A DNA stretch of 32,000 nucleotides from Candidatus Saccharimonadota bacterium (GTDB lineage: Bacteria > Patescibacteriota > Saccharimonadia > Saccharimonadales > Saccharimonadaceae): positions 300,001 through 332,000 of the forward strand of contig CP060232.1 in assembly GCA_023898645.1 (NCBI GenBank), read 5' to 3'. This document shows, piece by piece, positions 6,186 through 9,940 of the stretch. Each line of letters opens with the position of its first letter. Within the stretch, counting starts at the first letter, position 1. The translations under genes were made by a program, and so were the position numbers. The notes beneath the pieces were generated by a model. The model saw only the letters and a program-made list of their open reading frames with translations. It had not been told where the DNA came from and did no database searches.

Positions 6186-6225
6186 ATCTTACTTTAGTAT
6201 AATACGAATAATTCATTACAAACAA

Positions 6226-6253
6226 ATAACCCCCGTATTAATACGGGGGTTAT
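6226..6253 (-). terminator. terminator hairpin downstream of the LPXTG gene
   Basis: ATAACCCCCGTA-TTAA-TACGGGGGTTAT is a perfect 12-bp stem. On the minus strand a T-rich tract (TTGTTTGTAAT) follows. Confidence 0.7.
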
Positions 6254-6306
6254 TTGGGAGATTTTCGAGAGCCCACACTACTCGATTGGGAGCGGTCAGG
6301 CTTGTA

Positions 6307-7521
6307 CTAGCGTCGTAGCAGATTTCGTACACGCGCGCTGGTAGCGGCGTATGCGAGGCCGGCAGTCGTGGCGCCAAGACCGATAAAGGTCATGATGCCA
6401 GCGCTTGGGCCGGTTTGTGGTAGTACGGTTGGAACGTCTTGGCAAGGTTTAGTAACTACTACGTCAGCAGTTGCTTCCTTGTACAAGTCGTTGTTTACCG
6501 TTACGCGAACCTTGTTGGTATACGTTTTTGTACCACAGACGAGTGAGCCGCTATCGACTTTCGCCTTGAATTTAACATATGCGTTAGCATTGTCAGCATA
6601 GTTGCCAACATTTACGCCAGTGCCGTTTGTCAGGTTATTTGACAGAGTCAACGGGCTTGTGTTTGCAGCATTTGTCAACTGAGTCGAACCTGGTACGTAG
6701 GTGATGCCTTTTGGCAACGTATCTTGGAACCAGACGTTGTCTTGCTCTTCACCGCTAGTATTTTGGTATCCGAGCAAATAGTCGACTGTGTCGCCAGGTT
6801 TAACATTAACTGAACTGTGCCAGCCAGTTGTGCCATCTTTGCGGACTTGCTTGGTAACGTTGAAGTTCGCAGCGAACTGTGGCGTTACGTTGAAGCTCAG
6901 ATAGCCGGCATATTGCATACAACCAGGGATGTTGCCATCAAGTTTGTCATAGCCGAGCAGGGCGCCAGCACTAGTGAAGACGCTTTCTGAAATTGGTGTA
7001 CCGTTGGCGCCGAAGTAGTTGTTTTCATACTTTAGCGAGTTTGGTACGTATGCCAAGTTGAAGTTCTGGCTATTGCTAAAAGTAGCGTCATCATAAACTT
7101 CGGTTGGCGTAGCGTTGCTTGAATCAATGAAACCATCGACTCGAATTGATTTGCCGGTGGTAGTTGGCAAGTTGAACTTTGCGGTTACGTTCTGGGCAAC
7201 CAAGTTGAGGTTGCTTGCTGCGTTGTTGTGGACATACATACGAACTGTGTATGTTTTGCCCGGCTGAACTGTCATGTTGTCAGTCCAGGTGTTGGTAGTA
7301 CCCGCTTCGCGGATACCAACGAAATCTCGCTCGTCACCGATATTTGGGTTGTCGGTGATAGAGTTGAACGTCACGTGGTCAGAAGGGTTCTGAATTGTGA
7401 ACGTTGGGCGGCTTGGCCCCCATGCTAAAAGCACGGCAGGTACCAAAACGACACCAGCAACTGTTGCTACAAGAGCGACGAGTCGTGGTGAACGCTTAAT
7501 GGCGTTAAAAACTGCTTTCAT
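6307..7521 (-). CDS. LPXTG cell-wall-anchored surface protein
   Basis: 404 aa with an N-terminal signal/TM segment. The C-terminal sorting signal is LPQTG, a hydrophobic stretch and RVRNLLRR. The Asn/Thr-rich beta-type domains are typical of Gram-positive surface proteins. SD AGGAGA. Confidence 0.85.
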   Translation of the reverse strand: MKAVFNAIKRSPRLVALVATVAGVVLVPAVLLAWGPSRPTFTIQNPSDHVTFNSITDNPNIGDERDFVGIREAGTTNTWTDNMTVQPGKTYTVRMYVHNNAASNLNLVAQNVTAKFNLPTTTGKSIRVDGFIDSSNATPTEVYDDATFSNSQNFNLAYVPNSLKYENNYFGANGTPISESVFTSAGALLGYDKLDGNIPGCMQYAGYLSFNVTPQFAANFNVTKQVRKDGTTGWHSSVNVKPGDTVDYLLGYQNTSGEEQDNVWFQDTLPKGITYVPGSTQLTNAANTSPLTLSNNLTNGTGVNVGNYADNANAYVKFKAKVDSGSLVCGTKTYTNKVRVTVNNDLYKEATADVVVTKPCQDVPTVLPQTGPSAGIMTFIGLGATTAGLAYAATSARVRNLLRR

Positions 7522-7568
7522 ACATTCTCCTATCTAGCACCCACCTGCCAGAATTAATAATTAAAAAA

Positions 7569-7596
7569 ATTGTAATGCTACGAAGCTAATTGTTAA
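7569..7596 (-). promoter_or_regulatory. sigma70-like promoter for the LPXTG gene (TTAACA-16 nt-TACAAT)
   Basis: On the minus strand, TTAACA is at 7596-7591 and TACAAT at 7574-7569. This leaves a roughly 40-nt leader containing the SD. Confidence 0.5.
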
Positions 7597-7604
7597 GGCG
7601 CTAC

Positions 7605-7772
7605 AGAGCTACCTTGATATCTATCAGTCGAAGCGAATTTCAAGCAGCTGCCATGATTTGTTGTATGTTTTTTCGTGACAAGGTGGATCTGAATGATCCA
7701 TCGCGAAGCGAAAAACAGACAACAAGTGGCAGACCTTGGGATTGAGCCGATTGATAGATGTTAAGTAGCTCT
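7605..7772. ncRNA. 168-nt rod-like imperfect hairpin (candidate structured ncRNA or MITE/ERIC-like palindrome); strand unresolved
   Basis: Nested helices are 7605-7612/7765-7772, 7614-7630/7748-7764, 7636-7644/7735-7743, 7648-7653/7727-7732, 7658-7664/7719-7725, 7667-7675/7709-7716 and an apical 7685-7689/7695-7699. No credible ORF is present. Confidence 0.4.
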
Positions 7773-7773
7773 A

Positions 7774-7797
7774 AAATCAGATCATTACAAACTATGT
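7774..7797. repeat. inverted repeat copy A (AAATCAGATCATTACA-nnn-TATGT)
   Basis: 16/16 identity, and 21/24 overall, to the reverse complement of 9364-9387. Confidence 0.8.
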
Positions 7798-7812
7798 AGG
7801 GGATAACTCCGA

Positions 7813-7858
7813 GGAGCTATCTGTCACCGTGAGCAAAGCTCGAACAGGAGATAGCTCC
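7813..7858. other. stem-loop with nested GAGC-AAA-GCTC hairpin
   Basis: GGAGCTATCTGT (7813-7824) pairs with ACAG(GAG)ATAGCTCC (7844-7858), leaving a 3-nt bulge. Confidence 0.4.
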
Positions 7859-7891
7859 CCGGTGAAGTATGAAAAAAGTGAGTGACCCAGC

Positions 7892-7931
7892 CCAGGCGGG
7901 CGCATTGACCGAAGTCGTTGCGCCCGCCTGG
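7892..7931 (-). terminator. GC-rich terminator hairpin after the Pro/Thr-rich gene
   Basis: CCAGGCGGGCGC (7892-7903) pairs with GCGCCCGCCTGG (7920-7931), 7 nt past the stop codon. On the minus strand a T6 run (7877-7872) follows 14 nt later, so the geometry is not ideal. Confidence 0.6.
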
Positions 7932-7938
7932 ACATGGG

Positions 7939-9132
7939 TTAACTGGGCGGGGCTACTGTGCCGGTTATCACTGTTGAAGTGGTAACCGTACCTGACGAAT
8001 TAACGTGAGGAACAGTAGTTGTTCCCGCTCCCGTACCATTGACGCCCGGTTCCGGCGGCGGTGCCTGTACCGGAGTACTGACATGTGTCGGCGCGGAAGG
8101 ACCTGGCGCTACCGTTGGTGGCGGCGGGTTTACCCGTGGTGTTGACGGCGGATGAGTCATCTGCTCGGGTGGCACATACGTGCCGGGCCCGGGCTGATCA
8201 TTCGGACCGCCGCCTTGGGGCGCGTTGCCTTGCGGGTACGGATCCAGTGATGGAACCTTTGGTGCGAGCGTCGGAGGCGGTGTCGTCGTCGGCGGCGGTG
8301 TCGTCGTCGGAGGCGGTGTCGTCGTCGGCGGCGGCGTTGTCTCCGTTGTCGGAGGCGGTGTCGTCGGTGGTACCGTCGTCGGCGGCGGTGCCACAGGCGG
8401 TGGAACCGTCGTTACCGGCGGCATGCTTGGAATCGGTGCTCCGGGTGTGACGATGTTGCCACATTCCAGACGAACCCAATGCTCTCCGATGGGATTACCA
8501 GCTGCGTCTTGGTAGGTAACGCGCACGCCCGTGCCCGCCGGAATAGCGCCGTTTTGTGTAAACGCCGCACCGTTTGCAACGGCTCCGGTGTTTACGCCGC
8601 TTGCCGGAAGGCTGTCATGCGTGAGCGTTGTCACGTTCCACAGCACAATCCACTTGTTGTACGCTGCCACTCCGTCGGGCGTGAAGCACTTCCCATTTTC
8701 GATTGGCGCAATTTGCGTCACGTCATCGATGGGTGTTGCTTTGCCTAACGGCGAGGCGTTGTAGTACAGCTGGAAAATGCGAGGATCCTGCTTTGCTCCT
8801 TGTGCCACTTGCTGGCGCATCTCCTCCGTTTTAGGCGAAAGGCCATTGGAAAAGACGTTGTTGGAGAAGTTCGGATCCAGTTGCACGGTAAAACCACCGC
8901 ACGCGGCATCTTGCACGACCGTTGTGGGGCCGGTGTTTGTCGACGTGGATAGATTATCGTTGTTGCTTCGAACGAGTACGCTGATTGCGAACACAAACAG
9001 CAACACAGCGACAAGCGCTGCGACTGCAGGCCACATCCAGCTTCGTTGCTGGACTTCAGGCGTCTCGTCATCGAGGAAATTAGGCTCGACGCCATCGTTT
9101 TCGACGACTTCGTCGCTTTCGTTTTCACTCAT
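7939..9132 (-). CDS. N-terminally membrane-anchored protein with globular external domain and C-terminal Pro/Thr-rich repeat tail, hypothetical
   Basis: 397 aa with an acidic N-terminus. The TM helix is WPAVAALVAVLLFVFAISVLV. A Cys-containing domain of about 200 aa follows, then TTPPPTTTPPPTTTPPPT repeats. SD GGAGG. Confidence 0.85.
   Translation of the reverse strand: MSENESDEVVENDGVEPNFLDDETPEVQQRSWMWPAVAALVAVLLFVFAISVLVRSNNDNLSTSTNTGPTTVVQDAACGGFTVQLDPNFSNNVFSNGLSPKTEEMRQQVAQGAKQDPRIFQLYYNASPLGKATPIDDVTQIAPIENGKCFTPDGVAAYNKWIVLWNVTTLTHDSLPASGVNTGAVANGAAFTQNGAIPAGTGVRVTYQDAAGNPIGEHWVRLECGNIVTPGAPIPSMPPVTTVPPPVAPPPTTVPPTTPPPTTETTPPPTTTPPPTTTPPPTTTPPPTLAPKVPSLDPYPQGNAPQGGGPNDQPGPGTYVPPEQMTHPPSTPRVNPPPPTVAPGPSAPTHVSTPVQAPPPEPGVNGTGAGTTTVPHVNSSGTVTTSTVITGTVAPPS
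8271..8392. repeat. 18-nt tandem repeat (TCGG[A/C]GGCGGTGTCGTCG) inside the CDS
   Basis: There are three perfect units at 8271-8324, followed by degenerate units. On the minus strand they encode the PPPTTT repeats. Confidence 0.8.
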
Positions 9133-9278: not shown

Positions 9279-9360
9279 GCTGCCGTGGCAGCGCTACCGA
9301 TACAACGCATTGCGTCGGTGGCGCTGCCAAGCAGCACCCTACCCCTGTTAGAGGTAGGTG
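9279..9360. other. two adjacent stable hairpins
   Basis: The first hairpin pairs GCTGC..GGCAGCGCTACCGA (9279-9300) with TCGGTGGCGCTGCC..GCAGC (9315-9335) and has one G.U on the plus strand. The second pairs CCTACC with GGTAGG (9338-9358). Confidence 0.5.
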
Positions 9361-9363
9361 TAA

Positions 9364-9387
9364 ACATAAACTGTAATGATCTGATTT
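9364..9387. repeat. inverted repeat copy B (ACATA-nnn-TGTAATGATCTGATTT)
   Basis: This is the reverse complement of 7774-7797, with 16/16 identity in the core and 21/24 overall. Confidence 0.8.
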
Positions 9388-9444
9388 GTTAAGCGTCCAC
9401 CTCTGCAGAGTGAGTCTCCAGCTCATCGCAGTTGTCTCTGTTAG

Positions 9445-9471
9445 ATTATCACAAAACTTAAAAAAAGTCAA
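9445..9471 (-). promoter_or_regulatory. candidate promoter for the Pro/Thr-rich gene (TTGACT ... TGtGATAAT)
   Basis: On the minus strand, TTGACT is at 9471-9466 and an extended -10 TGtGATAAT ends at 9445 (15-nt spacer). The alternative -10 TAATCT gives a 17-nt spacer. Either choice implies a leader of about 305 nt. Confidence 0.4.
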
Positions 9472-9545
9472 TGTCTATGAAATAAAATTGCCATAAACAC
9501 AATTATAAAATACAGAGATTAAATTGAGAGATTGCATAACAGGGG

Positions 9546-9765: not shown

Positions 9766-9840
9766 GGTCTCATCGTCTAACGGTTAGGACACCAGGTTTT
9801 CATCCTGGCAATCCGGGTTCGATTCCCGGTGAGATCACCA
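9766..9840 (+). tRNA. tRNA-Glu (anticodon UUC), CCA encoded
   Basis: A cloverleaf was built by hand. The acceptor stem is GGTCTCA/TGAGATC and the D arm is GTCT-AACGGTTA-GGAC. The anticodon arm is CCAGG-TTTTCAT-CCTGG and the T arm is CCGGG-TTCGATT-CCCGG. The discriminator is A, followed by CCA. Confidence 0.95.
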
Positions 9841-9874
9841 GAGAAAATACCCCACTTCGGTGGGGTATTTTCTC
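9841..9874. terminator. bidirectional terminator hairpin
   Basis: GAGAAAATACCCCAC-TTCG-GTGGGGTATTTTCTC. The palindrome extends to ACCA/TGGT (9837-9878). U-rich 3' arms are present on both strands. Confidence 0.8.
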
Positions 9875-9875
9875 T

Positions 9876-9940
9876 GGTGCCTCCCGCGGGGCCGAACCCG
9901 GATTGGAAGCCGTGTAACGGCGCAATCCGGAGTTCGACCA
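9876..9940. other. tRNA-Glu 3'-half echoes / 50-nt hairpin with GTAA (GNRA) loop
   Basis: 9893-9905 is the exact reverse complement of tRNA positions 9809-9821 (CAATCCGGGTTCG). 9923-9937 is a direct near-copy (CAATCCGGaGTTCGA). These two segments pair with each other around GCCGT-GTAA-ACGGC. The region does not fold into a cloverleaf. Confidence 0.35.

Follow-up and report, generated by a model that had tools for sequence, protein, structure and literature searches.

A 168-nt palindromic insertion between two conserved blocks upstream of a DUF11/LPXTG surface-protein gene in Saccharibacteria

Several bacterial MITEs are palindromic over their whole length, among them ERIC, YPAL of Yersinia, the Correia/NEMIS elements of Neisseria, RUP of pneumococci and Nezha of cyanobacteria. 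MITEs of the ERIC/YPAL type are 100-170 bp long, have no coding capacity and have arms that pair over nearly their full length. They are intergenic, lying near promoters or in leaders, are present in one lineage with empty sites elsewhere, and form hairpins whose stability depends on orientation (G.U versus A.C). A target duplication is absent in some element classes. The IS200/IS605-derived PATEs and the REP/BIME elements with their RAYT move as single strands; they have short subterminal hairpins (20-40 nt), are multi-copy and go together with a TnpA or RAYT gene. Hairpins of greater length are known from myxobacterial retrons, whose msDNA stems measure 162-163 nt, and integron attC sites are recognised by their R''/R' core sites (RYYYAAC ... 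GTTRRRY), a cassette array and a nearby intI.

Here we describe a 168-nt near-complete palindrome, hereafter called the rod, found in a 32-kb stretch of DNA that was analysed as a whole and is referred to as the window. The rod encodes nothing recognisable and its arms differ by strand-asymmetric mismatches. It shares with ERIC/YPAL-type MITEs the properties given above for that type, but has no sequence similarity to them (Rfam, BLAST), is seen as a single copy and has no clear TA duplication, and its host is a member of the Saccharibacteria (CPR) with a genome of ~1.1 Mb. A literature search found no paper combining 'Saccharibacteria' with 'miniature inverted-repeat'. With the PATEs and REP/BIME elements the rod has in common the lack of a target-site duplication, the intergenic position and a strand-specific hairpin quality, G.T being tolerated on one strand only; it differs from them in being a whole-length structure and in having no TnpA/RAYT gene in the window.

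Other structured DNA elements were considered and rejected. A retron msd is likewise a long imperfect hairpin of ~160 nt of which one strand matters, but the rod has no adjacent reverse transcriptase, msr region or a1/a2 repeats, and its neighbours are surface-protein genes. As to an integron attC site, GTTAAGT is present near the 3' end of the rod, but the partner ACCTTGAT agrees at 5/7 positions, the site is single, and there is neither a cassette array nor an integrase. No transposase, reverse transcriptase, integrase or Tas-like gene was found anywhere in the window. In TIGR-Tas systems, repeats or stem-loops that carry box C/D motifs are arrayed in tandem beside the gene of a Nop-domain Tas protein (PMC12045711); the rod is single rather than an array, and the window encodes no such protein.

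The window is chromosomal DNA of Saccharibacteria (TM7), containing glycolysis genes, tRNA synthetases, uvrD and ksgA, and the best matches of its histidine kinase, all with 66% identity or less, are in Saccharibacteria MAGs. The rod sits in a 417-nt gap (7522-7938, as delimited in the first-pass annotation) between two minus-strand genes (Table 1). The gene that lies downstream on this strand encodes the DUF11 surface protein, and the one upstream a Pro/Thr-rich protein without a Pfam match. When the gap is read on the minus strand, the GC-rich hairpin is followed by hairpin 2, block A, the rod and block B, and block B is followed in turn by A/T-rich sequence, GGAG and the DUF11 start codon ATG. 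The consensus fold of hairpin 2, calculated from seven genomes, has 22 pairs, four of which show compensatory changes, and its G.U pairs are on the minus strand. It matches no Rfam family and is a candidate cis-regulatory or terminator structure.

Table 1. Features in and around the intergenic gap, with positions counted from the first nucleotide of the window.
Feature	Position	Strand	Basis
DUF11 surface-protein gene, 404 aa, signal peptide, LPQTG anchor motif	6307..7521	-	ORF; Pfam DUF11; homologues named LPXTG/DUF11
Block B, CCTTAACAATTAGCTTCGTAGCA on the minus strand, on the far side of the insertion from block A	7576..7598	-	nearly invariant across nine sequences
Rod, 168-nt whole-length palindrome	7605..7772	+ (strand with all transitions G.U/G.T)	folds; arm alignment; empty in eight relatives
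Block A, ACATAGTTTGTAATGATCTGATTT on the minus strand (TGTAATGATCTGATTT), abutting the insertion	7774..7797	-	kept in relatives
Hairpin 2, between the GC-rich terminator-like hairpin and block A, outside the insertion	7795..7863	-	consensus fold
GC-rich terminator-like hairpin, just downstream of the 397-aa gene	7892..7931	-	folds; kept in close relatives
Gene of the 397-aa Pro/Thr-rich protein, upstream of the rod	7939..9132	-	ORF

Folded as plus-strand RNA, the rod formed a single hairpin of 68 pairs with a minimum free energy (MFE) of -84.3 kcal/mol. Dinucleotide shuffles had a mean of -39.4 +/- 3.9 (z -11.5), and none of the 200 folded as well. The minus-strand RNA gave a weaker fold (-60.6 kcal/mol, z -7.9), the plus-strand RNA thus being 24 kcal/mol more stable, and with DNA parameters the values were -42.9 (plus) versus -33.8 (minus) kcal/mol. 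The ends of the rod read AGAGCTACYTTRAYATC. The outer 8 + 17 pairs are unbroken but for one bulge, the 17 consecutive pairs joining 7614-7630 with 7748-7764; the apex is a GGATC-TGAAT-GATCC hairpin, and there is no central bubble on the plus strand. The first-pass annotation had reported a rod of more than 60 pairs with this same 17-pair run and apical hairpin, and both are found in the MFE structure. It had also named five G.U wobbles on the plus strand (7616/7762, 7618/7760, 7627/7751, 7639/7740 and 7640/7739), which are correct; three further ones are present in the MFE fold (7654/7726, 7676/7708 and 7683/7701).

The strand asymmetry of the wobbles, already remarked upon in that annotation, was re-examined by aligning one arm with the reverse complement of the other. 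All seven transition mismatches are G.T on the plus strand and none is A.C, and the remaining differences comprise two transversion mismatches and ~8 small indels. This one-sidedness (two-sided binomial p = 0.016, a modest value from seven sites) is suggestive but not overwhelming. The 417-nt intergenic region including the rod is identical in three independent short-read assemblies (Logan contigs L001-L003), and the rod is therefore not an assembly artefact.

The corresponding site was compared in eight relatives. Four of them (L084, L085, L086 and L089) were chosen as carrying the closest DUF11 homologues, their adjacent DUF11/LPXTG protein being 81-84% identical to that of the window; the other four (L004, L006, L007 and L015) are GTDB Saccharibacteria representatives found via the window histidine kinase. 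In the alignment, block A, block B, the ribosome-binding region and the gene start are kept in 8/8 relatives, and hairpin 2 is kept in all six that align over it. The spacer between blocks A and B is 4-27 nt long in the eight relatives, whereas in the window the 168-nt rod is added to these few bases. The whole intergenic region accordingly measures 243-247 nt in L084 and L086 versus 417 nt in the window. A single insertion is far likelier than eight independent precise deletions, so the rod was inserted in the lineage of the window. Judged from these alignments, it entered after the split from the relatives with an 81-84% identical DUF11 protein and its target was the short spacer that separates two conserved regulatory blocks in front of the DUF11/LPXTG gene.

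The minus-strand TGTAATGAT box (7789-7781) that had been proposed as promoter-like is a real motif: it belongs to block A, is kept in the relatives and recurs in the inverted copy of this block at 9364-9387, around which the sequence is also conserved. The two copies form a 24-nt inverted repeat, ACATAnnnTGTAATGATCTGATTT (7774-7797 / 9364-9387), which points outward and flanks the 397-aa gene, and both are kept in L084, L086-L088 and L006. The block A pair looks like a promoter or operator motif shared by two surface-protein loci. Block B is an imperfect, diverged copy of block A in inverted orientation, and a consensus scan placed in it the TTAACA of a sigma-70-like site, TTAACA-16-TACAAT (7596-7569, minus strand). 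The similar plus-strand box TGTAATGCT, correctly located at 7571-7579 but also taken for a promoter-like signal, was not conserved in the relatives.

Two observations concern the surroundings of these blocks. A perfect 8-bp inverted repeat, TTGTAATG / CATTACAA (7570-7577 / 7783-7790), encloses the rod together with block B; its left arm (7570-7577) is specific to this genome and not conserved in the relatives, and the repeat could be due to chance or have been adjusted secondarily, once the rod was in place. The minus-strand region 9335-9488, which precedes the 397-aa gene, is strongly conserved in the alignment of the relatives and gave a sub-threshold match to the AdoCbl riboswitch (RF01482, 31.7 bits versus a gathering score of 50). 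The corresponding region of L084 gave no such match, and the one in the window may be due to chance.

Further copies and homologues of the rod were then searched for. There is no second copy in the 32-kb window and no homologue in 1.3 Mb of related loci. Two patterns, consisting of the 17-bp stem of either arm and of both termini with a free interior, were used for scans of larger collections: neither had a match in the JGI metagenomes, and in IMG/VR the only one, L090, was a chance match inside a phage coding sequence. BLAST of the rod against phage and plasmid records gave nothing. Near-identical extra copies in that genome are made less likely by the Logan contigs, whose assembly runs through the rod without a break. 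A 51-aa reading frame with a TTG start is the only one that spans the rod; no gene is predicted for it in the Logan contigs, and its sole match among 1.84 billion protein representatives was spurious (a translated eukaryotic satellite repeat). The Rfam search that had been called for was run on the whole window at gathering thresholds and on 7400-8000 at E <= 10 with lax filters; it returned only tRNA-Glu and chance miRNA-precursor matches, and no family for the rod.

Because its G.T mismatches and indels break the alignment, self-BLAST missed the rod of the window, and the ~1.3 Mb of related loci were scanned for long rods by a pairing-aware local alignment. One other was found, a rod hairpin of 164 nt that lies in the pgk-tpiA spacer of a further Saccharibacteria MAG (L025, 14337-14500), without sequence similarity to the first. 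The pgk-tpiA spacer is 206 nt long in L025 versus 19-52 nt in nine other loci and the window; since it is short elsewhere, the L025 rod is also a lineage-specific insertion, again without evident duplication. Here too, 7/7 transition mismatches favour one strand (-99.2 versus -72.0 kcal/mol). In both rods the better-pairing strand is antisense to the flanking genes, a coincidence of orientation that with two cases is not significant (p = 0.25).

GC skew is positive on the plus strand at both loci, which are syntenic and have the same orientation, and a replication-linked C-to-T bias therefore cannot explain both rods. A local control is provided by hairpin 2, which lies beside the window rod and has its G.U pairs on the minus strand. 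Three sources of the asymmetry may be envisaged. The rods may derive from, or move as, a single strand (ssDNA or RNA); selection may act against an over-stable hairpin in the host mRNA and favour A.C in the sense strand; or the better-pairing strand, the plus strand in the window, may produce a functional antisense RNA. As the two unrelated rods are of near-equal length and each has 7/7 G.U on the strand opposite the flanking genes, they might even represent an undescribed class of ~165-nt strand-specific rod elements of Saccharibacteria, with a single-stranded intermediate and no target duplication, which enter short spacers and are kept only antisense to host transcription. We put this forward as a distinctly improbable, speculative extension.

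The reading that we prefer, and to which we give about an even chance, takes the rod of the window for a foldback- or MITE-type DNA insertion, non-coding and palindromic over its whole length, which would have come in as a mobile or foldback element and not have evolved on the spot as an RNA gene. A MITE/ERIC-like element had been the alternative in the first-pass annotation, and it fits best in several respects. The entire rod is an inverted repeat, its 168 bp fall within the ~50-500 bp of elements without coding capacity, and it shows presence/absence polymorphism, eight relatives with conserved flanks having 4-27 nt in its place. Its two decisive features, dispersed copies and a target-site duplication, did not come to light: one copy is present in the 32 kb and none in the related loci, JGI metagenomes or IMG/VR, which leaves room for a low-copy family elsewhere in the genome, and the plus-strand flanks, GCGCTAC/AGAGC...GCTCT/AAAATC, contain no direct repeat, offering at most CA...TA, a degenerate TA.

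These same two points, the single copy in all searches and the lack of a clear target-site duplication, favour a one-off origin, which we hold to be unlikely overall but nevertheless a serious rival. The rod would then be a local palindrome produced when ~80 nt of foreign or unrecognised DNA were captured, for example in fold-back or template-switch repair, and it would never have been mobile but would have decayed since. GTAGC occurs both at the end of the rod and in its flank (GTAGCTCT/GTAGCG, minus strand), as microhomology template switching would leave it, and in some relatives the site is a short GC-rich palindrome or mini-hairpin (GGCGCC in L084 and L085, GCCCT-GATT-AGGGC in L015). However, neither in the window nor in the relatives could the arm sequence be traced to a source, one-sided mismatches are unexpected under neutral decay, and the L025 rod, unrelated but nearly as long, speaks for a process that recurs or for a class of elements.

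Another rival is that the rod is a recently acquired plus-strand sRNA gene, cis-antisense to the DUF11 leader and promoter region, whose nearly perfect hairpin RNA of ~170 nt is kept by selection on pairing. We consider this possible but doubtful. A 7:0 asymmetry is unexpected for a neutrally decaying double-stranded palindrome and fits an RNA under selection, as does the greater stability of the plus-strand RNA; the opposite strand preference of the adjacent hairpin 2 indicates that a local mutational bias is not the whole story; and on the plus strand the rod is preceded, at a distance of 25-35 nt, by a TGTAAT box that is specific to the window and follows an A/T-rich tract. Against it stand the lack of conservation of this box, the consensus scan, which detected no plus-strand promoter at the rod and no terminator after it, the small number of sites behind the p value, and the positive GC skew of the plus strand, where a C-to-T bias would push the pattern in the same direction. 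There is also no Rfam similarity, and as the rod occurs in no relative, it has neither conservation nor covariation in its favour.

The first-pass annotation had offered a new structured ncRNA as one of its two readings, to be checked by conservation and covariation of the pairing in related genomes. A conserved RNA gene is not supported by the comparison: the syntenic site is empty in all eight relatives although the surrounding blocks are conserved, and no homologue with compensatory changes was found, which leaves nothing to examine for covariation. To call an RNA gene, it does not suffice that a single sequence has a striking z-score and a G.U bias, and the empty sites are decisive here. 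A divergent housekeeping RNA, such as 6S, SRP or another rod-shaped ncRNA, is hardly credible. It is recommended only by the rod shape and the size of ~170 nt, both of which are also those of 6S RNA, and a housekeeping RNA would be conserved at a conserved locus, from which the rod is missing in all relatives. 6S RNA is rejected for lack of an open-promoter-like central bubble, of an Rfam 6S match and of conservation, and SRP RNA for want of an Rfam match and of conservation; the annotation had been right to dismiss both, along with RNase P and tmRNA.

The effect of the insertion would depend on which promoter serves the DUF11 gene. Should the TGTAAT of block A be the promoter, the rod would be transcribed on the minus strand as the first part of the DUF11 leader, where its weaker hairpin of about -60 kcal/mol with A.C mismatches could be a processing site or a roadblock. 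Should TTAACA-16-TACAAT be the promoter, the rod would lie just upstream of it and displace block A, a probable operator half-site, by 168 bp. With either promoter, an effect on DUF11 gene expression would be likely, via the leader structure, an RNase III-type target or the altered operator spacing; the rod may also be near-neutral and without effect on expression.

If the rod is only a palindromic insertion, its value is local: it marks a surface gene (DUF11/LPXTG) whose regulatory region has changed recently in an episymbiont with a very small genome, and would rank among the early cases of MITE-like DNA in Saccharibacteria. A general occurrence of the pattern seen in the two rods, with one-sided G.U and antisense orientation, would be a sign of either a strand-specific hairpin element or a selective filter on hairpin insertions in these reduced genomes.

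The window contains further repeats. Eight tandem 18-nt repeats, Thr/Pro-rich on the minus strand, occupy 8234-8422 within the 397-aa gene, and the 1-kb stretch around them has 61% G+C versus ~47% elsewhere in the window. A perfect 34-nt palindrome (6223-6256) is found between the DUF11 gene and a 71-aa ORF, both on the minus strand, and the Logan contig L001 ends at about position 6227, near this palindrome. At 9809-9905, a palindrome of ~100 nt is made up of the 3' part of tRNA-Glu, its terminator hairpin and a partial T-arm/acceptor copy in inverted orientation; ARAGORN predicts one tRNA only here. The palindrome recurs in many Saccharibacteria genomes, among them L011 (7271-7365), L023 (7786-7883), L012 (13213-13313), L022 (6140-6238), L027 (16447-16542) and L025 (12443-12540), and in another Saccharibacteria MAG (L031, 15550-16000) a tandem duplication of ~200 nt includes the tRNA-Glu 3' end and the terminator.
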